Origin: a virus
Direction: 5' to 3' (one strand)
DNA length: 12,477 bases
UHGV virus genome: UHGV-0072520
A program made the translations under genes and the position numbers. Shown one piece after another: positions 1 to 12,477 of the stretch. The notes beneath the pieces were generated by a model. The model did not search any database and was not told the origin of the DNA. It saw nothing but the letters and a program-made list of their open reading frames with translations. The number at the start of each line of letters is the position of its first letter. Positions within the stretch are counted from its first letter, which is position 1.

Positions 1-49
1 AGACTTGGATGATAGACTTCATGCCTTTGATTATTAGCTGATAGAAGAA

Positions 50-412
50 ATGTTAAAGCTATTTGCAAAGTACACCTCGATTGGTGTGCTGAACACACTT
101 ATACACTGGGTGGTTTTTGGTGTATGTATTTATGCCGCGCATACAAATCAGGCTCTGGCAAACTTCGCAGGTTTCATAGTAGCTGTGAGCTTTAGCTTCT
201 TCGCGAATGCAAGATTCACATTCAAAGCATCGACTACAACGATGCGCTACATGTTATACGTGGGATTCATGGGAACCTTGAGTGTTGTCGTCGGGTGGGC
301 TGCTGATAGATGTGCACTTCCCCCAATGGTCACCCTTATCACTTTCTCCGCCATCAGCCTGGTGTGCGGTTTCGTATATTCAAAGTTCATTGTCTTTAGG
401 GATGCGAAATGA
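50..412 (+). CDS. gtrA: GtrA, bactoprenol-linked glucose translocase (flippase), small polytopic membrane protein
   Basis: 120-aa hydrophobic ORF; N- and C-terminal sequence ([24 protein letters not shown] ... [13 protein letters not shown]) recognised as GtrA of serotype-converting Shigella/E. coli phages. Its stop overlaps the next start (ATGA at 409-412), indicating translational coupling. Confidence 0.88.
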
Positions 413-1335
413 AGATATCTCTTGTAGTTCCTGTCTTCAATGAAGAAGAAGCGATACCAATTTTTTATAAAACGGTACGTGAATTCGAAGAGTTGAAGCC
501 ATATGAGGTGGAAATTGTTTTCATAAATGACGGCAGCAAAGACTCTACAGAGTCAATAATTAACGCTCTGGCTGTTTCTGATCCGCTAGTTGTTCCGCTG
601 TCATTTACCAGAAACTTTGGTAAAGAACCTGCGCTGTTCGCTGGTCTTGATCACGCAACTGGTGAGGCGATTATCCCGATTGACGTTGACTTACAGGATC
701 CAATAGAAGTTATTCCTCACCTGATTGAGAAATGGCAACAAGGTGCGGACATGGTTCTGGCTAAACGCTCTGACCGCTCTACTGATGGTCGATTGAAGCG
801 CAAAACAGCTGAGTGGTTCTATAAGCTACATAATAAAATAAGCAATCCGCAAATTGAGGAGAACGTCGGAGACTTCCGTCTGATGTCTCGTGAAGTAGTT
901 GAAAATATCAAGCTTTTACCCGAGCGTAATCTGTTCATGAAAGGTGTGCTTAGCTGGGTTGGCGGCCGTACTGATGTTGTCGAATATGCACGCGCTGAGC
1001 GTGTTGCTGGTAGCACTAAATTCAACGGATGGAAGTTGTGGAATTTGGCACTTGAAGGAATAACCAGCTTCTCTACATTCCCATTACGCATCTGGACTTA
1101 CATCGGCCTTCTCGTTGCTGGAGTTTCGTTCCTTTACGGAGCTTGGATGATTATTGACACACTTGCATTTGGTAATGCTGTCAGAGGCTATCCTTCCCTT
1201 CTCGTTTCCATATTATTCCTTGGTGGAATTCAGCTAATCGGCATTGGTGTTTTAGGGGAATATATTGGAAGAATTTATGTAGAAGCAAAACATCGCCCAA
1301 GATATTTAATTAAAAAGGAAAAACATGAAAAATAA
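409..1335 (+). CDS. gtrB: GtrB, bactoprenol glucosyltransferase (GT2 family)
   Basis: 308-aa ORF beginning [20 protein letters not shown] with FINDGSKD and DVDLQDP motifs typical of GT2 undecaprenyl-phosphate glucosyltransferases, plus C-terminal transmembrane segments; directly follows gtrA. Confidence 0.9.
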
Positions 1336-2629
1336 TAACACACATATAATGATAATCATATATGCTTTAGTTATATGCATGCTTACATCAAATGTTTTTA
1401 TGATTAATACTAGTGATTTTTACAGATCGGTATTTCCTTTCATAGGTGAAATAAATACATTTGATGGAAATCTAACACTAAATTATGAATTAAAAAAAGA
1501 TTTTTTGAGTGTTTTCTCCTATGATTACATTAGCTCTTATAGTTACATCTTATATATTTATGCTTATATTATTTCTTTCTTTACAAATTATTTAGATTTG
1601 AGATTGCTATCAAGTATTCTTAAGATTATTTTTATAATAACATTATACTCATTATTTAGAAATATCACCAAGGAAAATGGCGCTAAATTTTTGGCGATAT
1701 TTTTCATAATCGCTCTCCCTATGCTATCAACCTCAAACCTAGCATTCTTCTCATCTTTTTATCAAGAGCAAATAGTAATCATAGCATTACCAATAGTCTC
1801 TTTATTTATAAGCGGCAATAATAAAAAAGATATACTCATTACTTTCATAGCTGCCACCCTCATAGCTTGCTCAAAGAGCCAGTTCTTTTACCTTCCGTTA
1901 ATAATAGCAATAGCTTATGGCATATTTAATCGAGATATGTTTAAGTTTAAAATTTTATTAACAGTTTTATCAATGTCGCTTTCTTTAATGTGCATTTGGG
2001 GTTCCTCTGGTGCGGCAGCATTTAATAAATACCATGCAAATTATTTTGGTATATATGAATATGCAAAAATCAATAATATTGAGATCGAACAAAACGTAGA
2101 CCAAAAATGCATTGGCGTAGATGCGTGGGGAAATAAATTTAATCTAGAACATGGAGCTATACAAACAACTTTAGGTGGCGATTGTTTTGGTAGAAATACT
2201 TCTGCTGGTTTCGTCGATGTAATTAGATGGGTCGCTAAAAACCCCAGCATTATTTATAATCTTCCAGTTGATGCCGGGATTAAAACACAATATACTGAAA
2301 ATTATTTCCATGTATTTAATGGAATAAAATTAATACAGGGGAATACAGGGGCATTGTCATACTTAACTGAAGTCAAGGATTATTTATTTAAAGATCTTAG
2401 GTTTGTTATTTTATTCATTACAATGTTGTTATCAATCATCTTCATTAGAAAGAAACTCTCAATTTTACTCTTTACCGTATGCTCGTTTGGGACATCACAG
2501 TTATACGTCTCTTTTTTTGGCGAGGGTTACAGAGATTTAGACAAACATCTTTTCGGGATGAATTTCGCATTCGACTTAACTATATTTATCGTGATGTGTC
2601 TTTTAGTTAGATTAAAATTCAAAAAATAA
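1325..2629 (+). CDS. Type-specific O-antigen glucosyltransferase (GtrC-type), polytopic membrane protein; serotype specificity undetermined
   Basis: 434-aa highly hydrophobic ORF immediately after gtrAB, the canonical position of the type-specific gtr gene. Strikingly AT-rich compared with flanking DNA. Start overlaps the gtrB stop by 11 nt; an alternative in-frame ATG lies at 1349. Confidence 0.72.
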
Positions 2630-2660
2630 AATATTGCTGCGCCATGATTAACATGGCGCA
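2621..2660 (-). terminator. Intrinsic terminator between convergent gtrC and tailspike genes
   Basis: Perfect 9-bp inverted repeat tgcgccatg / catggcgca (2638-2646 and 2652-2660) with 5-nt loop attaa. The + strand A-run at 2621-2636 gives a U-tract for - strand transcripts just past the tailspike stop. May act weakly on + strand transcripts too. Confidence 0.5.
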
Positions 2661-2666
2661 AATTAC

Positions 2667-4628
2667 TCACCAGTCTGCTAAAACTATCGCCCCACGCATA
2701 AATGCACGGTAAAAAGGAGATTCCCCTGCAGGGAAGCTGAAATGGAGAACTGGTGCTTCCCCAACAGCGTAATAATCTTCCGGTTTGAATCCAAACATAA
2801 ACGTTTGGCTTGAAGAAAGAGTCACACTTGCAATATCTTGATAGCGAATACCGTCTTTGCTTTTACCCATAAGAAAAAGTCCGTTTATAGGATTCCCGCC
2901 ATTAAGATTGGATATCTCAAGCCAAGCCCCTACGCCCTTACTGTAGCTACTGCAAAGACATAGAGATGCATCAGAAGTTTTAAAAGCAACTCCACTGACA
3001 TCGACTCCTTGCTGGGTGGTTTCATGGTCCCCATCACCAGAGCCACTTAATATCCTAGTTGGCCATGCATTCTTCGTAATTGTCTGGTCACTTGAGCTTG
3101 GATCCGCAGGCATAACATCCTTAAGCAATTCCTGTAGTGGCCAATGTTTACCACTGCCGGCTCCACCAAATAGATAGGTCTTTGTTTTTAGCTGTCTTGG
3201 ATAAGACTTGGATGCTAGTTTAGTAACTAACTCTTGAAGTATTCGATTAGTGCGTATCCTGTCAGTAATACCTGGGTCAGCTTCACCATCCCATACAAAT
3301 GCACCAAAATTCCCATTGCCCGCAGCGCCAAATATTTCAGCGCCTCCAACTACCTGATCAATATCACCACTTATATTGCTTCCACTAAATAGAAACGCAC
3401 CAACTACAGGGATAACATTAGGAATTTCAGTCATTTTGGAAATTACACCAAAATCTAATCTCATTTTCACAAGATCGGCGTTAATTCTGGTTTGTAAATC
3501 TCCTGTTGCAGCAGTTGAATATGAGTTAACTAAAGCCAGATCATAATTTTTTGAATACCATTGATTGAACGGTCCGCCAGGAGGAAGTTGGCACACCATA
3601 AGCAATGTTTTGTTTGTAACACTACGAAGAGTTTCAATCTTTGCATCCTGATCTGCAACACTGATCCCTCTAGCGCCTGGCTCGTCATATACTGCATATG
3701 CTACAACCGCAGGATGAGTGTCTATGGATTTAACAAAACTTGGCAGATCAGATATAGCAAGCGGGTCTTGTTCGGTTCCGATAGAAACTTTTAGACCTGC
3801 TGTTAAAGCATTATCTAATAACTTAAACTTGTCGCCTTCATCATCTACAGAACCACTAAACCCCAAATAATGGTGGATACTATTAAATCCTAATTGCTTT
3901 ATAAATAACAACTCAGCCAAGTCATAAGCAGAGCTAACGTAACAAATTTTCACTTTTGCATCGAAAGATACATCTACTTCTGAAGTCGCTAATATTGATC
4001 CAAGATTGTAGCGAGTCGTGTTAATCTTAAAATTACCGATTAATTTCTGCCCCTTAGATTTCAGCTTTTTTGTGATTTTATACTCTTTGTCTTTGATTCC
4101 TACAACATCCTTCCCAGTATCAAATGCAGCCTGAATGGCGTCTGACCAATCATCATCAACAACAAGATTTGCATAATCTTCGATGTAAGCATATACATCA
4201 CTACGCTTATTAAGGTTGTCTATATCAGTCTGCTTTGCGGCCCCATTTACTAAATCCACACCACCAGGTGCAGCAAGCTCCTGTCTTAACTGATCAGGAT
4301 CGTACTTCAGCACATTAGGAAAATAGAATTGCTGTGCACCATACGCATCATAACCAGCCATAGAATGGCCTTGCACGGTAACGAATTTGGCAATCTGTCC
4401 GTTATATACAGGATAACCAGCAGCGTTAATGATGATTGGTTGAGAAACAGGAACGTGAGAGCCGTCTTCGTTCTCTATATAAACCTGAATCTGGTTTTCA
4501 GGATTTACCGGGTCCGTGTCAATTTTACCGATATAAATTTTGCCATTGGCTACGGCTTTAAAAGAACGCGCCATAGTGAAGAGTTGCGATGGCATTGATA
4601 CGATCACATTGGCTGTAATGTCTGTCAT
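2667..4628 (-). CDS. Tailspike protein: P22-type N-terminal head-binding domain, divergent C-terminal receptor-binding/depolymerase domain
   Basis: 653-aa ORF. The first ~115 aa ([13 protein letters not shown] ... [38 protein letters not shown] ... [13 protein letters not shown] ... NVLKYDPDQ) closely resemble the conserved head-binding domain of P22/Sf6/HK620 tailspikes as I recall them. The remainder is not recognisably the P22 endorhamnosidase. RBS GGAG lies 8 nt upstream of the ATG on the - strand. Confidence 0.85.
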
Positions 4629-4686
4629 TTAATTTGCTCCAGATACAAGGAATAGCCGCAGCATGGCTACGGTGAATTTTGGGCAT

Positions 4687-4709
4687 AAAAAAACCCAGCC
4701 GAAGCTGGG
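4687..4709 (-). terminator. Intrinsic terminator (- strand) upstream of the tailspike gene
   Basis: Stem cccagc / gctggg (4694-4699 and 4704-4709) with loop cgaa. Seven A's at 4687-4693 on the + strand give a U7 tract directly after the hairpin on the - strand. Confidence 0.5.
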
Positions 4710-4761
4710 TCGTTGCGTTGGTTATCTGTCAGTAGTTATGTACTGGCTGAAGGATTTGTAC

Positions 4762-4792
4762 AAAAAAACCACCTGACGGTGGGTTAATTTTT
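4762..4792. terminator. Putative bidirectional intrinsic terminator
   Basis: Stem ccacc / ggtgg (4769-4773 and 4778-4782) with loop tgac, flanked by an A7 run upstream (4762-4768) and ttaattttt downstream (4784-4792), so either strand gets a U-rich tail. Confidence 0.45.
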
Positions 4793-4810
4793 GCATTTAC
4801 CTGGGCCATA

Positions 4811-4839
4811 TTGACTACTTATAAAATGAGATCAATATT
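4811..4839 (+). promoter_or_regulatory. Candidate sigma70 promoter for the small + strand gene
   Basis: TTGACT (4811-4816), 17-nt spacer, AATATT (4834-4839); the -35 matches consensus at 5 of 6 positions and the -10 at 4 of 6. Lies about 35 nt upstream of the ATG at 4876. By-eye match only. Confidence 0.3.
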
Positions 4840-4875
4840 TAATCGCCCAATAATGGGTGTATGTTGAGGTATATC

Positions 4876-5055
4876 ATGGCGAAAAAACCAGGTGAAAACA
4901 CAGGAAAAAACGGCGGAATATACCAAGAAGTTGGCCCACGCGGCGGTAAGAAAGACAATTTTGCCACCGTCAAGGACAACGAAAGGCTTCCACCAACAAC
5001 AAAGCCAGGTCATGGCTGGGTATTGGATAAGCGAACTCCAGACAGCAAAAAGTAA
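4876..5055 (+). CDS. Small YjzC-like protein (function unknown)
   Basis: 59-aa ORF MAKKPGENTGKNGGIYQEVGPRGG ... LPPTTKPGHGWVLDKRTP. The G-x-Y-x-E-V-G ... W ... KRTP pattern resembles the YjzC-like small-protein family as I recall it. GAGG RBS 5 nt upstream of the ATG at 4876 (the ORF track's upstream ATG at 4861 lacks an RBS). A terminator follows. Confidence 0.5.
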   Translation: MAKKPGENTGKNGGIYQEVGPRGGKKDNFATVKDNERLPPTTKPGHGWVLDKRTPDSKK

Positions 5056-5061
5056 TAATCA

Positions 5062-5084
5062 AGCCGGGTCACTCCGGCTTTTTG
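5062..5084 (+). terminator. Intrinsic terminator after the YjzC-like gene
   Basis: Stem agccgg / ccggct (5062-5067 and 5074-5079) with loop gtcact, followed by a T5 run. It overlaps the 3' end of the convergent - strand gene, so it may serve both. Confidence 0.55.
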
Positions 5085-5434
5085 ATATGTCGCTCGCAGA
5101 ACTCAACAAGCCTGCTCATTAAGTAGCAGTAAGTCTCGTTGGCTCTTCCTGGTTCAACATCAACACCTACCCTTGAGCAGATATCGAATGCCATGTGAGC
5201 GCACTCATGGGCAATAGTAGATAGTTTGCCATTGAACACGCCTATCACATGCAAAACACCATTCTCGCTACTCATTGTATGAGACGCTCCGTTGGCGTCC
5301 GAGTCATGCACGTCAACGCCAAGTTTTTGATGCAGGCGTTGCCATTCTGGAAAGTCTCTACAAAACACAATTGTACCGCTCTCAAAGAGCGGAACGAGCA
5401 TCTTTGGTACGTTTCCAATGTTAACTTTTTTCAT
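5069..5434 (-). CDS. Hypothetical protein with HExxH zinc-metallopeptidase-like motif
   Basis: 121-aa ORF containing IAHECAHMAFD (H-E-x-x-H) followed by several Cys/His residues (DICS, YCY, FCERH) that could complete a metal site. AGGA RBS 4 nt upstream of the ATG on the - strand. No family assignment possible without a search. Confidence 0.55.
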   Translation of the reverse strand: MKKVNIGNVPKMLVPLFESGTIVFCRDFPEWQRLHQKLGVDVHDSDANGASHTMSSENGVLHVIGVFNGKLSTIAHECAHMAFDICSRVGVDVEPGRANETYCYLMSRLVEFCERHIKKPE

Positions 5435-5468
5435 GGTATCCTGCGCAAAACTAAGGAGAGTTAATTAT

Positions 5469-5954
5469 ATGAAAAAACCACTGTTAATTATCCCGCTTCT
5501 GCTGGCTGGGTGCGCAAAAGTAAGCGACTATCAGGCAAGTTGCGAGCAACGCTATCCAAAGCTTAGCGATATGGCTAATTGCCTTGATGCCAGCTTGAAG
5601 AACGACTCTCGCATGGCATCAGCACCAACACCTAAGCTGTATGTCCTTGCTGCGAAGATGCTCGGGCAAGGTGTCGATGAAGGCAAGATAAGTGACACAC
5701 AGGCAAGACTTGAACTTCAGAATCTTTATGTTCAATTACAAAGCCAAGAACAAGCACAACAAATAGCACAAAGCCAAGCATTCCAGCAGGCTTTATTGAA
5801 TTATCAGGCTGTAAACACAATGCAAGCGATCGAGCAAAAAGCGCGCCAGCCTGTTATAACTCAACCTTACCCAACACGCGTTGACACATATACAAACTGC
5901 AATTCAGGATTTGGAAACACGGTAACATGCAACAGTAGCAGTAATATCAGGTAG
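5469..5954 (+). CDS. Prophage-encoded lipoprotein, predicted outer-membrane localisation
   Basis: N-terminus MKKPLLIIPLLLAGC has a classic signal peptide plus LAGC lipobox, and Ala at +2 argues against inner-membrane retention. GGAG RBS about 10 nt upstream of the ATG at 5469 (the ORF-track start at 5418 adds an unlikely extension with no RBS). Gln-rich predicted helical middle; 161 aa. Confidence 0.7.
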   Translation: MKKPLLIIPLLLAGCAKVSDYQASCEQRYPKLSDMANCLDASLKNDSRMASAPTPKLYVLAAKMLGQGVDEGKISDTQARLELQNLYVQLQSQEQAQQIAQSQAFQQALLNYQAVNTMQAIEQKARQPVITQPYPTRVDTYTNCNSGFGNTVTCNSSSNIR

Positions 5955-5968
5955 TTACATCTTATCTT

Positions 5969-7816
5969 TTATTGCTGTTCTGCTGTAATTTGGCTTGAAA
6001 GTATAGGGCGTATCGCATTTGCAGCATTATTTAGCGCTCTTTCATAGGCTGGTGTTCCTGCTTTGGTGTTTGCCAAACGTAAGAGAGCATTCCTTGCTGC
6101 TTTTGACTCATACAAGCGCATCATTGCACCGAAACCAGCCTCAAGCCCCATTGATACGCCAAGAGTCGCAGTTGCGCCAATCGTCCTTATCCTGTTGGCT
6201 TGCGATTGCCCCGTCTGAGTTACTACATTTGCGGTGTCTGACCTTGCTGTTTGCTGTAGAACTTCATGAAGAGAATCAAGCTCTTTCATGTGCTTTCCAG
6301 AAAAAATAGTGTTGTAAATTTCACCGCCTGACTGAGATTTCAGCTTATTAACTTCAGTGATGAACTTGGCTGGAGAGTCCCCGGCCTTTTCCGCTATTTT
6401 GCTGACGTAAGCTGCACGCATAGCATCTTTCCCCTTATCATCCAGTGCGCTCCAGATTCGTTTCACGTCAGATGGTTTTCTGCTTAATACAACGGTATTT
6501 ATAAGTTCAGGACTGGCTTCACTGCTTGCCTTGTTGAGCTTGTTGGCAATGTTTTTATTAAGCACCTTATTATAAACGTTTGCATAATCGGAATTTGCTT
6601 TAAGGTATTTTGCTGCGTCTGATGCACCGAGGTTTTTAGCAACTGCGTTACGAAGGTCTTTTGACATTGCATTCTCTACCATATTGGTAGCTGCTTTTGC
6701 CTGGTTGGGGAAGACCATAGCATCTCCCTGAACATTAGATCTAAATGCTGTTCTGTGCTGACGCAAGAGATCAAACGTAACATCCAAATCAGTTGCAGGG
6801 TTTGCTAATTCTTCACGTAGGTTACGCAAGGATGTAAGCAGGCTTTGATTGGCAGACGTCCCAAGCCGTTCCTGTCTTGCGATCGCTGTATTCAGAGCAT
6901 TCATGGTATTTGTTGTATCAACTGCGGCATTACCCATTTTATTGGTGACGTCATTGATAACAGCGCCAGCGGCATCCTTCCGTCCCCTTAACGTGGTGGT
7001 CAGAGATTTCACCACATCATCAGGGTTGTACTCACCAAAACGGTCAAAATAATTACTTACCAGTTTACTACGCGTTGCATATTGCTCCGCTCGCTTTGAT
7101 CCTGTCCCGAGCAAAGCCCCCTCGGCATCCTGAGTAAGGCCGCGAGTGAAAGCATTTTTCGGTGGGATGACATCAGATGTCATTGGCGTCACACCCATTG
7201 ATTCTGAGGTGGCAATTTTTTTCGCTACTTCTGGCGCGATATCGCCTTTTATAGCCGTTATTCCACGCCCTATTCCCTTTGCTGCTGCGGAAAGAACACC
7301 CTGAGCGGCAAGGTTAACTCCGGCATTTTTAGCTGCATTTTGTGCGAAATCGCCTTTCTGATTTGCGGCCTCTGCCAGTGAGCCAATAGCCATGCTTCCT
7401 GCCGTTCCAACTCCTGGAACTAAATACCCGCCAATTGTTTCTCCAGCTTGCGCATAAGGGTCTGTCGGTCGATCGACAGGGCGATAAACATCATCCAAAA
7501 CCTTGGGGCCACCAAGCCCCTGGCTGATTGCATTAATCAGACTTGCGCCACCCTGCAATACGTCAAATGGTATGTTTACCAGACCACGACCAGCCTGTTC
7601 TGCAATTTGCCCTGCACTTTGACCACCAGTGAGCCAATCGCCAGCTTGTTGCATCAATGATGGTTCTTCCCGTGTTGGTGCATTATTGGCCTGATTAACT
7701 GTTTGTTGCTGAACAGCCTGACCAGCAAAATACTCATCAATGGCGGTGCCAATATCTTCGGTGCTCGTACCATCAGGAAAGGTAAATGTCTTACCGTTTG
7801 CAGTTACTTTCATCAT
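5969..7816 (-). CDS. Ejection (DNA-transfer/injection) protein, P22 gp16-like
   Basis: 615-aa Ala/Gly/Gln-rich ORF without obvious enzymatic motifs, upstream of and co-oriented with the tailspike, matching the position and approximate size of P22 gene 16. Start overlaps the upstream stop (ATGA at 7813-7816). Assignment is by synteny and composition, not verified homology. Confidence 0.6.
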
Positions 7817-8805
7817 TCCACCGTAAATTGAATGCCTGATTTTGAGGTATATGATCCGGATTGACTCTGCTGCTGTTGGGTATTTGTCGGTTGTTGGTTA
7901 TTGCTCTGTTGTTGACTATTTGCAGCACTTGAAACCACCAAAGCATCATAAACGCGACCAGACTGACCACGTAATGAGTTATATTGGCCCTGCATTTTTC
8001 GCATTTTTGTTTCAGTAGCAGCCTTGGAATCACCAGGCTGAGGCAGGTACATTTTGGAATACTCCTGCATCTCTGGCAGAGTAATTGCTGCACCTGTTTC
8101 TGGGCGCAAAATTGCATACAAGGCGTCTCTCGCATTTACCATATATTGCTGCTCCGCTGGTGATAGGCTTAAATTTGCAATAGTCCCATCACCAAGAGAG
8201 CGATTTATTAATGCAACTCGCTTAGGGTCAATGCTTTTACTAAGCTGATTCATTGAGTCCATTGAATCTTTTAATCGCAAAGCAAATCCTGCCGCCTTCT
8301 TGGAACCCTCATTAGCCTTATCTATGATGCTTTGCGCTTGTGGCAAACTAATTGGTTTAATGCCATCACCAGATATAGGTTGGTTTAGTTTTCCGGCTTC
8401 CTCGCTGCCATCGGTGTAATACTTAGTTACCGAGCCATCAGGATTGGTTTCAACCTTAAGTAATTTCTTAGCATTGGGATTAATTCCCGCCGCTGCCGCA
8501 AATGCCGCTGCACCATCTGGATCCGCCTTTAACATTTGCGCGTACTGATTGTAATTCTGCATTGCGACTGTTGGTGCATATGCTGACGTTAACGCATTTG
8601 CTCGGCTAATATCCTGCCCTCTCGCCTGAAGTGCCTCGCCAGCCTGATTGCTGCGGATTGTCTCTGCCAGTCTGCCTCGGTCAATCTCACGACCAGCCAT
8701 CTTGTCCTGAACAGCAAACGCCTTTTCTGGTCCAAGCGCACCGAGAGACATAGTAGTCAGCATGTGTGATAGCTGCTCTGGATTCTGGATACCTGTCTGA
8801 ATCAT
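7813..8805 (-). CDS. Ejection protein, P22 gp20-like, apparently missing its 5' end
   Basis: 330-aa ORF from the first ATG, but the frame stays open upstream to 8919 with no start codon, which suggests the N-terminal coding part was deleted. Translationally coupled to the gp16-like gene. Assignment is by synteny. Confidence 0.5.
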
Positions 8806-8835
8806 CCAGTCAGCATTAGCACCAACGCGATTTAA

Positions 8836-9192
8836 CCTGTCCTTGTTGTCAGTAATGAATTTACTGTAGGCTTCCGGTCCCTGAGAAAGAGCGACGTTAC
8901 CGTAATAGTCCCCTGTCGGTTAGGGAAGCTGCGTGTTGAGCTGGAAGCAACAGAGAACAACCTCATTGATAGTGAATGCCATGTTGCTGAACTGGAAGAA
9001 GCACTACGCGACAAGCAGGCGTTACTTGAAGCCTCAGAAAAGCGCATAGCAGAACAAAGCTCGATTGTTACAGCCGCTGAAAAACTGGTTCGCTGTAAAG
9101 GCCGCTATCACAGTGAGCAAAACTATCGTGCGCTGGCTGCATTGTTTGGCGTAACAGTGCCGGATTTACCACCACTGCAAGCAGATGATTAA
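8836..9192 (+). pseudogene. 3' fragment of an early-region gene (coiled-coil C-terminus), no start codon
   Basis: Open frame 8836-9189 with no ATG/GTG/TTG start. It encodes ...KLRVELEATENNLIDSECHVAELEEALRDKQALLEASEKRIAEQ...LFGVTVPDLPPLQADD and ends 10 nt before the next gene with operon-like spacing (AAGGA RBS at 9191-9195). Confidence 0.35.
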
Positions 9193-9202
9193 GGACTAAC
9201 CT

Positions 9203-9775
9203 ATGACCACTATTACCAAAGAGCGACTACTGACAATCAAGCAGTGGCGCGAAACATACGGACCTGGTAGCAACGTTGTACTGCCAGCAGAAGAAGCGGA
9301 AGAACTGGCACGAATTGCTCTGGCATCGCTGGAAGCAGAACCTGTAAGCCAAACTTACAACTTGCCACAAACGCACTTTGAACAGGTTGCTGACCTTTAC
9401 GAAATGCAATTTGATGACGGACGCACTTGTGCCTTTCATACTGATGCACAAAAGGCTGCGCAATGGCTTCGGGCATGCGACGGAAACAGGGTTCAGGAAT
9501 ACGTGAAACTGGAGCGACTGCAGAACGCGCTATCGGGCAACTCTCCGGTAATTCCGGATAGTTGGATAAGCTGTAGTGAGCGAATGCCGGAAAAGAATCA
9601 GAACGTGCTTATTTCGGTGAATTTCGATAGCTCTCTGGTTGAACCGCTAATATGCTCCGCACGCTATACCGGAAGCACCTTTCGGCGCGGAGATGCAACG
9701 ATTAAGCCGGGTAATGGTATTGAGCAAGCAACTCACTGGATTCCGCTACCGGAACCGCCGCAGGAGGCGAAATGA
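9203..9775 (+). CDS. DUF551-like phage early protein
   Basis: 190-aa ORF whose C-terminus (WISCSERMPEKNQNVLI ... ATHWIPLPEPP) matches the DUF551 signature common in lambdoid/P22-like early regions, as I recall it. AAGGA RBS 7 nt upstream. Confidence 0.68.
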   Translation: MTTITKERLLTIKQWRETYGPGSNVVLPAEEAEELARIALASLEAEPVSQTYNLPQTHFEQVADLYEMQFDDGRTCAFHTDAQKAAQWLRACDGNRVQEYVKLERLQNALSGNSPVIPDSWISCSERMPEKNQNVLISVNFDSSLVEPLICSARYTGSTFRRGDATIKPGNGIEQATHWIPLPEPPQEAK

Positions 9776-10032
9776 TGGATGTAAAAGAGAAGGTTTTGCA
9801 GGTGATGCGTTCCCGGGCTGCCCTGCAAGATAAAGCTCTCGGCGGGGAATATCCATTCAGAATGGCAACCTGGAATTTGCGGTTGGCAATGGAGAAGGAA
9901 TTTCCTGATGAAGAATGGCGTTCGGCAGATTTGCGCAAAATTCTTATGGAGATTGCTAAAGACGGAACAGTATCTAAAGATAACCATGCCAGCCGGATTG
10001 GTCAGGCGGTATGGAGACTGGAGGTGCGGTAA
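9772..10032 (+). CDS. Hypothetical small phage protein
   Basis: 86-aa ORF; start overlaps the upstream stop (ATGA at 9772-9775), indicating translational coupling within the early operon. Confidence 0.55.
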   Translation: MMDVKEKVLQVMRSRAALQDKALGGEYPFRMATWNLRLAMEKEFPDEEWRSADLRKILMEIAKDGTVSKDNHASRIGQAVWRLEVR

Positions 10033-10313
10033 TGGCTAACCTGCAACTTGCCGTCAAAGGTGAATACTTCGATGCCATGATTCGCGGAGATAAAACGGAA
10101 GAGTATCGCCTGTGTAATGACTACTGGAATAAGCGAATTATGTTCCGGGAATATGACCGCCTGATTATCACAAAGGGATATCCGAAGCGCGACGACTCCA
10201 GTCGCAGAATTGATGTTCCGTATGGAGGATATGAAGTGAAAACAATCACACACCCCCACTTCGGTGATAAGCCGGTAAAGGTATACGCGATAAAGGTGAA
10301 TATCAATTGCTAA
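10032..10313 (+). CDS. ASCH/PUA-like domain protein
   Basis: N-terminus MANLQLAVKGEYFDAMIRGDKTEEYRL resembles the ASCH-domain signature (compare E. coli YqfB ...FQDDILAGRKTITIRD). Start chosen at the ATG overlapping the upstream stop (TAATG) with GGAGGTG 7 nt upstream. The ORF-track start at 10011 lies inside the previous gene. Confidence 0.58.
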   Translation: MANLQLAVKGEYFDAMIRGDKTEEYRLCNDYWNKRIMFREYDRLIITKGYPKRDDSSRRIDVPYGGYEVKTITHPHFGDKPVKVYAIKVNINC

Positions 10314-10424
10314 ATTAGTGGCATAGCATAAAGATGCTTGCATTAATGAAGTGTGTATAATAACGCCTCATCAATTGTAAACTACTGAAATAGCAAAAAA
10401 TGCATATTAAAGAGGATTCGAAAA

Positions 10425-10616
10425 TTGAAAATGTTCATGCAAATAGACAGACGCATAGATCTTAATGGCAATTCATACTTAGTTAGATGCGAAGAGAGGC
10501 CTAACGGTGAGTGGCGTGTATATGATATTGACCGTAAGATCAATATCAGCACCATGAACAAAGACACTGCCTTTGATGAATGGAAAGCTGAAGCTAAAAA
10601 ACAACATAATTCGTAG
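10425..10616 (+). CDS. Hypothetical small protein
   Basis: 63-aa ORF. AGAGGA at 10411-10416 is well spaced for the TTG at 10425; ATGs at 10431 and 10437 are alternatives. Followed by a terminator. Confidence 0.42.
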   Translation: MKMFMQIDRRIDLNGNSYLVRCEERPNGEWRVYDIDRKINISTMNKDTAFDEWKAEAKKQHNS

Positions 10617-10658
10617 AATTACAAAAACCCTAACCAATTGATGGATTTCTTTTATCTG

Positions 10659-10683
10659 AACTCGCTACGGCGAGTTTTGTTTT
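10659..10683 (+). terminator. Intrinsic terminator
   Basis: 7-bp stem aactcgc / gcgagtt with loop tacg, followed by ttgtttt. Confidence 0.55.
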
Positions 10684-10695
10684 ATGGAGATGATT

Positions 10696-10995
10696 ATGGC
10701 CTGTTCAACATTCAACCCTCTAACGTTACAGAAATACCAGCCAGCCCCTGAAGATTTATGCTCACTGTGTGGCGGAAATCATGGTAAAGCCGCCATGATT
10801 GAATGTAAGGACAAAATCCACATTTGCCTTAATTGCGTTGATGTCCTCGTTGATATCAAAAATGAGAGAGAAGATAAAAAGCGTAGCGAGGCTGTTCGAG
10901 CCTTAGATTCATGGATGCGAGATGGGTATAGTGCCGCGCAAATTTATGACTTAGCAATATCAAAAGGCGAAATACCAGGAGTGCGCATCGAATAA
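10696..10995 (+). CDS. Cys-rich small protein, possible zinc-ribbon
   Basis: ORF with paired CxxC motifs (CSLCGG ... CLNC) separated by about 18 residues. Start chosen at the ATG at 10696 with GGAG 6 nt upstream; the ORF track begins at 10684. Confidence 0.5.
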   Translation: MACSTFNPLTLQKYQPAPEDLCSLCGGNHGKAAMIECKDKIHICLNCVDVLVDIKNEREDKKRSEAVRALDSWMRDGYSAAQIYDLAISKGEIPGVRIE

Positions 10996-11035
10996 GACGT
11001 AACCAATATTTGTATTGAAGAACTGAAAGAACACC

Positions 11036-11061
11036 AAGCCGCCTGATGGCGGTTTATTTTT
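11036..11061 (+). terminator. Intrinsic terminator
   Basis: Stem ccgcc / ggcgg (11039-11043 and 11048-11052) with loop tgat, extendable by A-T pairs, followed by tttattttt. Confidence 0.55.
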
Positions 11062-11076
11062 GCCTGGAGAATTAAG

Positions 11077-11268
11077 ATGACCGATACCAGCCTGATTCCT
11101 GAGAAAGAAGTGATGAACAAGCTCGGTGTTTCATCACGTCAGACAATCTGGAACTATACCAAACGGCACGGATTTCCGAAGCCAGTCAGAACCCACCCCA
11201 AATCATACCTTCGTGAAGCTGTTGAGGGGTGGATTCTTAACGGTGGCGTTAATCAGAAATGCTCCTGA
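11077..11268 (+). CDS. AlpA-family phage transcriptional regulator / putative excisionase (HTH)
   Basis: 63-aa ORF MTDTSLIPEKEVMNKLGVSSRQTIWNYTKRHGFPKPV..., typical of AlpA/Xis-like small HTH proteins next to P4-type integrases. GGAG RBS at 11065-11068. Confidence 0.75.
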   Translation: MTDTSLIPEKEVMNKLGVSSRQTIWNYTKRHGFPKPVRTHPKSYLREAVEGWILNGGVNQKCS

Positions 11269-12427
11269 TGTGCCAGAACAATTTATCAGCGTGAAGCTCA
11301 TACGCTTTGCGCTGAGCCTCTATCCAGTCGTGTTTATTGTATACGGACATTATCCCGCCAAGTTCATGACCGAGCATTCGCTCAGTAACATGAGGCTCGA
11401 CATTCATCTCGGACAGACGTGTAACAAGCGTTCTTCTGAAATCATGTGTTCGCCAGTAACCTATATCCATCCCTCCCCTTATTCTATTTACGAATCGGTT
11501 GGCTGCAGCGATGCTGATCGGTTTGTTTATGTCTTCTCCAGGGAAAAGAACATCATTGTACGTTGTCATGGCCTTTTCGAGGAAAGGCTTAATTTGTTCG
11601 AAGATTGGACGGCGGATAACATTACCCATCTTGCTATGCTCTTTCGGTACGGTCCATACGTTTTCCAGCAGGTCAAATTCTGTCTTTTTTGCCAGCCTAA
11701 GCTCTGAGAGCCTCGCCCCCCACATCATAAGCATCTGATGAAGTAGCTTATTTGACGTAGACGCACGGCTTCTTTCAATAGCAAGCCAAATCTTAGCCAG
11801 TTCGTGATACGACAGTACCCGATCCCCTACCTCAGCGCGGGAGCCGAAGTCCCTTGGTTGGATGCTCATAATTGCGCAACTATCTATCAACTGACGCCGC
11901 ATGCACCAACTTATTGCTGACCTTAGTTGACTTAGCACCTGCCTTGCTCGGCGTGGATTATCTCTTTCTTCTTCGGTAAGCAGGTCAACCCATTGCTTAA
12001 CCGTGATAGAAGATGCCGGACGATTAGGAAAGGCGTCATGCATGCGCTTCATAACCGTTGATCGGTAAAGTGCCTGGGTCTTTTCTCTGAGAGTTGTAGA
12101 GACGTAGTTGTCGAACCAGTAGTCGAGACACTGGGCGACCGTCATGGAGTTCTCCACCTTCTCTTCAAAATAAGTGCGTGGATCCGTTCCTGAGAAATAG
12201 AGCTTTCGCAAGTCAGCAGTGATCTGTCTGGCATCCTTCAAAGACAGGGATGGGTATCGACCAAGCCCAAGTCGATTAGGCTTGCCATGCCAGCGATAGC
12301 GGTACTGGAACTGGATGACCCCCTTCGGTGAAATTCGTACGCTGAGGCCATCGGCATCAGCCACTTCTTGTGGGCCCGAATATGGTTTACCATAAATAGT
12401 ACGCAGTTTTGTGTCGCTTATAGCCAT
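11249..12427 (-). CDS. int: Tyrosine site-specific integrase, P4-type (DUF4102-like N-terminal arm-binding domain)
   Basis: 392 aa. N-terminus (SDTKLR ... DGLSVRISPKG ... YRYRWHGK ... LGLGRYPSLSLKDAR) fits the P4-family integrase pattern. C-terminal catalytic residues are visible: HDFRRT (H-x-x-R) and the tyrosine in MSVYNKHDW. Confidence 0.92.
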   Translation of the reverse strand: MAISDTKLRTIYGKPYSGPQEVADADGLSVRISPKGVIQFQYRYRWHGKPNRLGLGRYPSLSLKDARQITADLRKLYFSGTDPRTYFEEKVENSMTVAQCLDYWFDNYVSTTLREKTQALYRSTVMKRMHDAFPNRPASSITVKQWVDLLTEEERDNPRRARQVLSQLRSAISWCMRRQLIDSCAIMSIQPRDFGSRAEVGDRVLSYHELAKIWLAIERSRASTSNKLLHQMLMMWGARLSELRLAKKTEFDLLENVWTVPKEHSKMGNVIRRPIFEQIKPFLEKAMTTYNDVLFPGEDINKPISIAAANRFVNRIRGGMDIGYWRTHDFRRTLVTRLSEMNVEPHVTERMLGHELGGIMSVYNKHDWIEAQRKAYELHADKLFWHIRSISD

Positions 12428-12435
12428 AAATAATA

Positions 12436-12477
12436 TTTGGTACGCTCAGAAATAATGGTTTGGTACACATCTGGTAC
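12436..12477. repeat. Three direct copies of TGGTAC just outside the integrase 5' end (possible arm-type sites)
   Basis: TTTGGTAC at 12436-12443 and 12459-12466, and TGGTAC at 12472-12477, all in direct orientation at the window edge. Confidence 0.25.

Follow-up and report, generated by a model that had tools for sequence, protein, structure and literature searches.

gtrABC and a tailspike gene in a probable decay remnant of a P22-like prophage in sbcB of Escherichia coli

The stretch of DNA analyzed here, the 12,477 nucleotides (nt) of UHGV virus genome UHGV-0072520 (hereafter, the window), is very probably the body of a decayed Lederbergvirus-type (P22-like) prophage of ~13.1 kb inserted into the 5' end of sbcB, in the dacD-sbcB interval, with no evidence that selection holds it there. 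It is an ordinary P22-like prophage leftover of a well-known type. The original prediction, made from the sequence alone, described it as a minimal domesticated prophage in which gtrABC, a tailspike, a lipoprotein, ejection proteins, a few early genes, and the integrase survive while all the genes needed to make virions are gone. Open reading frame (ORF) and profile scans confirmed this inventory; the selection for lysogenic conversion that was read into it is a different matter and is weighed below.

The source of the window was located via an exact protein look-up. NODE_8 of the European Nucleotide Archive (ENA) assembly ERZ1745575, a 212-kb SPAdes contig built from short reads, matches the window at 100% along its full 12,477 nt. 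Past the integrase, on the right, this contig runs into host DNA, with a hybrid sbcB followed by tsuB, tsuA, plaP, and yeeY, and this right flank (5.3 kb of E. coli genes) is 99.8% identical to that of strain 160-11H1. The host is E. coli, where Salmonella had been expected. On the left, NODE_8 ends only 100 nt beyond window position 1. In relatives, the sequence at this left end is single copy and lies 53 nt before a humD (umuD-like) gene fragment, and the break is probably due to an unresolved repeat, an insertion sequence (IS) element, or strain heterogeneity. Two other assemblies contain the window-type remnant, a Joint Genome Institute (JGI) metagenome contig (3300014523) and a Logan contig (ERR526085) of 2.5 kb. 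Its left flank is in none of the three assemblies, as the JGI contig stops inside gene 16 and the Logan contig covers only its 2.5 kb.

The attachment site was mapped by a three-way comparison of the int-proximal and gtr-proximal junctions of relatives with the attP region of phage E212. The crossover core is TTTCACGATTAC(G/A), which falls among the initial codons of sbcB. On the contig that contains the window, the att core (TTTCACGATTACG) is found 165 to 177 nt beyond the window end on the integrase side, followed by host sbcB, and the hybrid sbcB starts 132 nt beyond the window end (locus L023, reverse strand). The 5' end of this gene is supplied by the phage, so that the encoded N terminus MTDTDKQPTFLF replaces the native MMNDGKQQSTFLF; the exonuclease I of the lysogen is a hybrid, and the native 5' end of sbcB is stranded near dacD. 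This displaced native end, ATGATGAATGACGG...TTTCACGATTAC, finishes 424 nt to the left of the equivalent of window position 1 in nine relatives with the dacD side, and dacD comes next, at ~1.2 kb to the left of gtrA in strains 160-11H1 and 2-1. By analogy with these relatives, the left att of the source genome would also be placed 424 nt out, and the element, measured between its two att sites, would come to ~13.1 kb provided that the source genome resembles them on that side. The phage DNA is bounded by att at an integration site, on the right in its own contig and on the left in the nine relatives, which agrees with the prediction that the att sites lie just outside the window. A flanking tRNA had been anticipated as well, but att is in the 5' end of sbcB; a tRNA search of the window found none, and an Rfam search of the window gave no match. 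No att repeats were found in a repeat search on NODE_8, as expected with attL off the contig. sbcB is a published integration site of Shiga toxin (Stx) phages (PMC8309913).

The gene content was taken from a six-frame ORF listing, with Pfam, PHROGs, and NCBIfam scans of all ORFs of at least 50 amino acids (aa). Among these ORFs of the window there is no terminase, portal, scaffold, coat, head-completion, needle, gp7, lysis, replication, or repressor gene, which leaves the element without its packaging, head, lysis, replication, and immunity modules. The assignment to the P22-like phages comes from the presence of PF09008, PF16928, and PHROGs 770 and 917 and from a gene order like that of phages E212 and APC_JM3.2, with the coat gene represented by a 25-nt scar only.

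This scar marks the point where the middle of the prophage is missing. Window positions 8800 to 8899 are identical (100/100 nt) to gene 20 of an intact relative, and the gp20 encoded there lacks the first 130 of its 471 residues, as judged by PHROG 917 and by blastp to intact gp20. Next to it lies the coat-gene scar (TACCGTAATAGTCCCCTGTCGGTTA), identical at 25/25 nt to the coat coding sequence in two loci (L001 and L012) and at 24/25 nt in a third (L021), and from position 8920 on, the sequence corresponds to the last ~90 codons of ea22. The two joints are 23 nt apart, and each has a microhomology of 2 to 4 nt, TA in one case and GGT(T)A in the other. As the coat scar was left in place, head genes were once present at this locus, and because the scar sits between the truncated gene 20 and the truncated ea22, there must have been either two or more illegitimate deletions or a single complex event. 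The same joint, including the scar, is common to the three independent assemblies, and the Logan contig is 100% identical over the 2.5 kb that cross it; exact-match scans found the joint neither in the viral contig collection nor in the one-genome-per-species collection. With host DNA directly past the integrase, truncated genes, and a coat scar at the joint, the window is a defective remnant rather than a slice of a complete prophage, as had been proposed. The proposed survival of ejection and early genes holds for gp16, which is intact, and fails for gp20, which has lost its N-terminal part, and for ea22, of which only a 3' fragment is left.

The arrangement of the surviving genes fits the same history, and the suggested comparison with intact P22-like phages bore this out. 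E212 and APC_JM3.2 have the order 7-20-16-morons-tailspike-(humD or gtr)-attP-int, convergent xis, and ea genes, and this circle, opened at attP, gives the order of the window once the stretch from ea22 to gene 20 is removed. We can infer by analogy that ~30 kb of a ~40-kb genome (about three quarters) would have been lost. A complete phage of ~40 kb would have integrated at the core by means of its tyrosine integrase, supplying the replacement 5' end of sbcB; illegitimate deletions mediated by microhomology, two or more unless a single complex event was responsible, would then have removed the head-to-gp20 and early-to-coat blocks. The losses would comprise the rest of the early-left operon, immunity, replication, nin/Q, lysis, terminase, portal, scaffold, and coat, together with head completion, the needle, gp7, and the first 130 codons of gp20, while the 25-nt coat piece stayed between the two truncated genes. 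The survivors would simply be the outer parts of the prophage map, with int-xis-ea at one end and 20'-16-morons-tailspike-gtrABC at the opposite end (Table 1). Because the late promoter (P_late), its antiterminator, and P_L are deleted, the tailspike, gp16, truncated gp20, and ea ORFs are probably silent passengers. gtrABC, int, and possibly the lipoprotein and small morons may still be working as separate transcription units. The predicted function of the operon is O-antigen glucosylation, in which GtrB would load glucose on undecaprenyl phosphate, GtrA would flip it, and GtrC would attach it; the glucosylated O antigen would be expected to block adsorption of phages with the cognate tailspike.

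Table 1 Features of the 12,477-nt window, in order of position
Feature	Position	Strand	Description
gtrA	50-412	+	120 aa; bactoprenol-linked glucose translocase; PF04138, E 5e-14; 3 hydrophobic segments; 94% to K-12 YfdG
gtrB	409-1335	+	308 aa; GT2 bactoprenol glucosyltransferase; PF00535, E 3e-31; two C-terminal membrane segments; 90% to K-12 YfdH
gtrC	1325-2629	+	434 aa; polytopic serotype-specific glucosyltransferase, YfdI family; 45% to K-12 YfdI
G+C-rich hairpin	2637-2661	.	Terminator-like; between convergent gtrC and tailspike
Tailspike	2667-4628	-	653 aa, intact ORF; P22 head-binding domain at residues 1-113, PF09008, E 1e-65
64-aa ORF	4861-5055	+	PHROG 3202; weak YjzC-like match; promoter-like sites upstream, G+C-rich hairpin and T-run just after
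121-aa protein	5069-5434	-	PHROG 1365 (function unknown); HECAH (HExxH) motif
Lipoprotein	5469-5954	+	161 aa; lipobox LLAGC (MKKPLLIIPLLLAGC); PHROG 6067; P22 sieA/immI position
gp16-type DNA ejection protein	5969-7816	-	615 aa, intact; PHROG 770, E 5e-280; PF26808 on record
gp20-type ejection protein, 5' truncated	7813-8899	-	PHROG 917 positions 131-509; homology from residue 131 of 471
P22-type coat-gene scar	8898-8922	-	25 nt; codons ~249-257 of 417; late-operon orientation
ead/ea22-like early gene	8920-9192	+	3' fragment, ~90 codons
DUF551 early-region protein	9203-9775	+	190 aa; PF04448, E 2.5e-20
Four small early-left ORFs	9772-10032, 10011-10313, 10425-10616, 10684-10995	+	PHROGs 2814, 625, and 3680 match three
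AlpA-like helix-turn-helix protein	11077-11268	+	63 aa; weak PF05930 match; excisionase/recombination directionality factor (RDF) position in related phages
Tyrosine integrase	11249-12427	-	392 aa, intact; PF13356 and PF00589; 5' end toward att; convergent with xis

At least six further remnants, whose deletions end elsewhere, occupy the same dacD-sbcB site. Strains 160-11H1 and UCXN01 have kept gtrABC-tailspike-gp10'-gp4-coat-scaffold'-early-int, with joints at scaffold'/early and gp10'/tailspike, and GCA_027274725 and GCA_027275385 are reduced to gtrABC-tailspike-Lar-xis-int (7.7 kb), with a joint at tailspike/Lar. Strain 2-1 codes for another gtrC and has a joint at Eag/gp26', while ECL27977, also with another gtrC, has its joint at DUF551/gp16' and an int cut by IS3. 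E1433 and its relatives are without gtr and show a joint at xis/gp20' and an IS100 in int. Finally, 2017.11.01CC contains a non-P22 remnant with int-xis-early genes and tail-fiber pieces. Five of these remnants (160-11H1, 2-1, E1433, ECL27977, and GCA_027274725) share with the window the att site, the integrase type, and the layout in which the ends are kept and the middle is deleted, and the gtrABC-tailspike module of 160-11H1 and GCA_027274725 is 99.5% identical to that of the window; however, the deletion end points are all different, and some lack gtr or have an IS-disrupted int. The remnants are independent decay events, as the window is nearer to less-decayed prophages than to the other remnants (99.9% versus 99.5%). 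We also surveyed the site with a 25-kb query across the locus, sampling the ranked list of 5,426 complete E. coli genomes at 60 evenly spaced points. Most dacD-sbcB sites were empty with K-12 spacing, large prophages were present in 4 of 56 chromosomes, and joined small remnants were seen at the first two or three sampled ranks, from which we can roughly extrapolate that a remnant of up to 13 kb is found in a few percent of genomes. The window's own remnant was absent from the 5,426 genomes.

A rival explanation for what survives is domestication: lysogenic conversion by gtrABC, and perhaps by the lipoprotein, would have placed these genes under purifying selection, which spared them as the remainder of the prophage degenerated. 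All five sbcB remnants that carry gtr, each with its own deletion end points, have an intact gtrABC, and the operon lies outside the late and early operons, where it could have its own transcription; gtr operons in phage remnants of Salmonella are common and functional (PMC3688519), and the retention of host-beneficial genes is predicted by models (PMC7744054). By analogy with described systems, it is plausible that gtrABC is beneficial to the host (PMC3688519, PMC4413052). Against this, an exact match to GtrC was what brought up most of those loci, which makes the retention of gtr partly a matter of ascertainment. Moreover, gtrABC shows 0 nt differences and the tailspike 5 to 6 from the copies in two less-decayed prophages, one at sbcB (L007) and one in the ybhB-bioA region (L008), which still carry gp16, gp20, gp7, gp14, the needle, gp10, gp4, and coat. 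Too little time has therefore elapsed since the deletion, or since the module was acquired, to read selection, and the ratio of nonsynonymous to synonymous substitution rates (dN/dS) is uninformative on gtrABC because there are zero substitutions. The tailspike and gp16, which are useless without virions, are as intact as gtr, and the gtr-less remnants of the E1433 type and the non-P22 remnant have an identical ends-only layout. Domestication would also lead one to look for one remnant conserved across diverged host lineages; what we found is that the host flanks of the ENA and JGI copies, the two carriers with a flank on record, are identical over 5.3 kb and thus represent one young lineage, and that the remnant does not occur in the complete genomes surveyed. 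In incomplete prophages, replication, packaging, and lysis genes are preferentially lost, and integrase and tail-fiber genes are enriched (PMC7744054). Map position together with the loss of a harmful middle explains the retention of both ends at least as well as selection does, and on these grounds we consider domestication unlikely.

Decay without detectable selection, the reading that we prefer, has points against it too. The left limit of NODE_8 leaves the left att and dacD outside the sequence seen for the source genome, and what follows there could be a repeat, an IS element, or another prophage; the less-decayed prophages (L007, L008, and others) were viewed over 10 kb only, up to the coat gene; and the ~30-kb size of the deletion was estimated by analogy with APC_JM3.2, which is not the true parent. 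If the missing modules, or a second tandem prophage, were beyond the contig end, the window would be only a slice of something larger. The contig does break in sequence expected to be single copy, which suggests a repeat, and E. coli has known cases of prophages in tandem or nested in one another (PMC8112680). Yet in the P22-like map all essential modules fall between int and gtr, that is, inside the window, where they are absent; the coat scar shows that the head genes were lost from this very locus; the nine relatives that include the dacD side all continue for 424 nt to att and from there to dacD; and a neighboring element could not complete this unit. We regard such a slice as very improbable. 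Even less credible, to the point of being nearly negligible, is that the gene 20'/ea22' joint is a misassembly of two prophage regions in a mixed sample: the source is a short-read SPAdes assembly, repeats are common to P22-like prophages, and the JGI contig breaks in gene 16, but the joint and its 25-nt scar are identical in three independent assemblies from different archives, one of which spans the joint with 2.5 kb of 100% identity.

The integrity of the integrase and excisionase ORFs and of the right att core, together with a 4.6-kb gtr-tailspike module that is near identical in prophages at two att sites, could also suggest a mobilizable cassette (int, xis, att, tailspike, and gtr) that exploits helper P22-like phages. 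The compact architecture with replication and helper-hijacking genes of phage satellites (phage-inducible chromosomal islands [PICI] or P4-like) was not seen, as profile and PADLOC scans of the window found no replication, pac/terminase, capsid-redirecting, or regulatory genes and no defense-family match, and the end points of the remnants vary and cut through genes, which marks decay rather than a conserved architecture. We hold this origin to be extremely improbable. Somewhat less remote, but still improbable, is that the remnant could still be excised and act as a chromosomal reservoir of a matched receptor-binding and receptor-masking pair for incoming P22-like phages, with gtrABC, and perhaps the lipoprotein, as a standing antiadsorption defense. 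This idea follows from the intact int, xis, and (presumably) both att sites, from the occurrence of the tailspike-gtrABC module at two att sites, and from a patchy exchange with other prophages. The exchange is suggested by the JGI copy (L004), whose differences from the window fall in two clusters, 7000 to 7500 and 9500 to 10000 (15 and 32 differing columns), along with two 3-nt indels. These clustered differences look like recombination and not like clock-like divergence, and they suggest patchy gene conversion with other resident prophages.

The gtrABC operon has the typical composition of a GtrA flippase, a GtrB of family GT2, and a polytopic GtrC encoded in three overlapping ORFs. GtrC has PF27133 (YfdI_N) on record, weak WsfD/DUF2142 matches, and at least eight hydrophobic segments, and its gene has a low G+C content (28 to 34%). 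Phase-variable gtr operons are recognized by a group of four GATC sites that fall in overlapping OxyR sites inside the ~128 nt before gtrA (PMC3688519, PMC2909390). This P22/Salmonella signature was not found, as GATC is absent from window positions 1 to 200 (OxyR motifs were not searched), and relatives with an identical 100-nt upstream stretch have one GATC 58 nt before the gtrA start and the next ~330 nt upstream. A single GATC is present in the ~190 nt upstream of gtrA (L006, 8540 to 8726), part of which is the same sequence as the 100 nt that precede the window. The operon may not be phase variable in the Dam/OxyR manner of P22 and Salmonella. The block from gtrABC to the tailspike corresponds to a 4.6-kb module that travels as a unit (window positions 1 to 4640; 8677 to 13316 in L007 and L008). 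It is 99.5 to 99.9% identical at sbcB and near ybhB/bioA, amid different ejection and early genes, and the gtrC-tailspike module was found in only one of the 5,426 complete E. coli genomes.

The receptor-binding part of the tailspike (residues ~115 to 653; window positions 2670 to 4286) had no match in Pfam and PDB sequence searches, and the PDB matches of the tailspike all end by residue 141, mostly at ~118. A single-sequence AlphaFold model of this part was unusable, with a mean predicted local distance difference test (pLDDT) score of 32.7. Between the tailspike and ejection genes, the 64-aa ORF (region 4811 to 5080) is possibly a self-contained moron; a promoter scan had no power, with 23 sites versus the 27.3 expected in shuffled sequence. 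The 121-aa protein next to it occupies the position of immI in P22. It gave no match in Pfam or PADLOC, and its HECAH motif is suggestive of a small metallopeptidase. The PADLOC scan of the window as a whole returned nothing credible. At the other end, the integrase region has 98 to 99% DNA identity to Stx2c phages, HK140, E212, and APC_JM3.2 (the sbcB-specific type), and the counterparts of the AlpA-like protein are annotated as AlpA family in Stx phages and APC_JM3.2.

The closest intact relatives are the Lederbergvirus coliphages E212, APC_JM3.2, HK620, and Sf101, with the same integrase and convergent AlpA-like xis as the window (98 to 99% DNA identity) and the same gene order, head-binding domain, and ejection proteins. 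Compared with them, the window is short of ~30 kb, has truncated versions of gp20 and ea22, and differs in the type of its gtrC and of its tailspike receptor-binding part. The Stx2c prophages 2851 and 1717 share the sbcB site and an integrase/xis/DUF551 end that is 98 to 99% identical (PMC8309913); unlike the window, they are complete lambdoid prophages of 57 to 62 kb with unrelated late regions and neither gtr nor a P22 tailspike. Horizontally acquired gtrABC operons are likewise found in Salmonella, in phage remnants (e.g., the SPI-16 locus) and in P22/BTP1 prophages, that is, in full or decayed P22-like prophages (PMC3688519, PMC4413052), which differ from the window in host and att site and in having the four-GATC Dam/OxyR signature versus the single GATC in the 190 nt upstream in relatives. 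The classic analogue is CPS-53 of K-12 (KpLE1, at argW), a similar leftover of 10.2 kb, with intS-yfdGHI-tail-fiber leftovers-early genes-torI (RDF) and, as in the window, no virion, lysis, or replication modules. The identity between both elements is 94% for YfdG/GtrA and 90% for YfdH/GtrB and drops to 45% for YfdI/GtrC. In contrast to the window, the att of CPS-53 is the argW tRNA gene and not the 5' end of sbcB, its integrase is unrelated (22% identity), its int adjoins gtr instead of lying at the opposite end, and its tail genes are tail fiber/tfa and not a P22 tailspike with ejection proteins.

With its two microhomology joints and coat scar, the window is a well-documented case of stepwise prophage decay. 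It adds one more member to a series of independently decayed sbcB remnants, with little significance beyond a good annotation. The series can be used to ask whether end-proximal cargo like gtrABC is kept by selection or by map position. For serotyping and phage therapy, the point of interest is that a predicted, intact O-antigen glucosylation operon persists without an inducible phage. A related block is found in a composite remnant at argW/yfdC (L022, GCA_976941995.1, 2888 to 18693), which has two integrases, a gp10 fragment, and erf-ea22-DUF551 early genes, as well as a gp16-lipoprotein-tailspike-gtrABC block whose gp16 protein is the same as that of the window.

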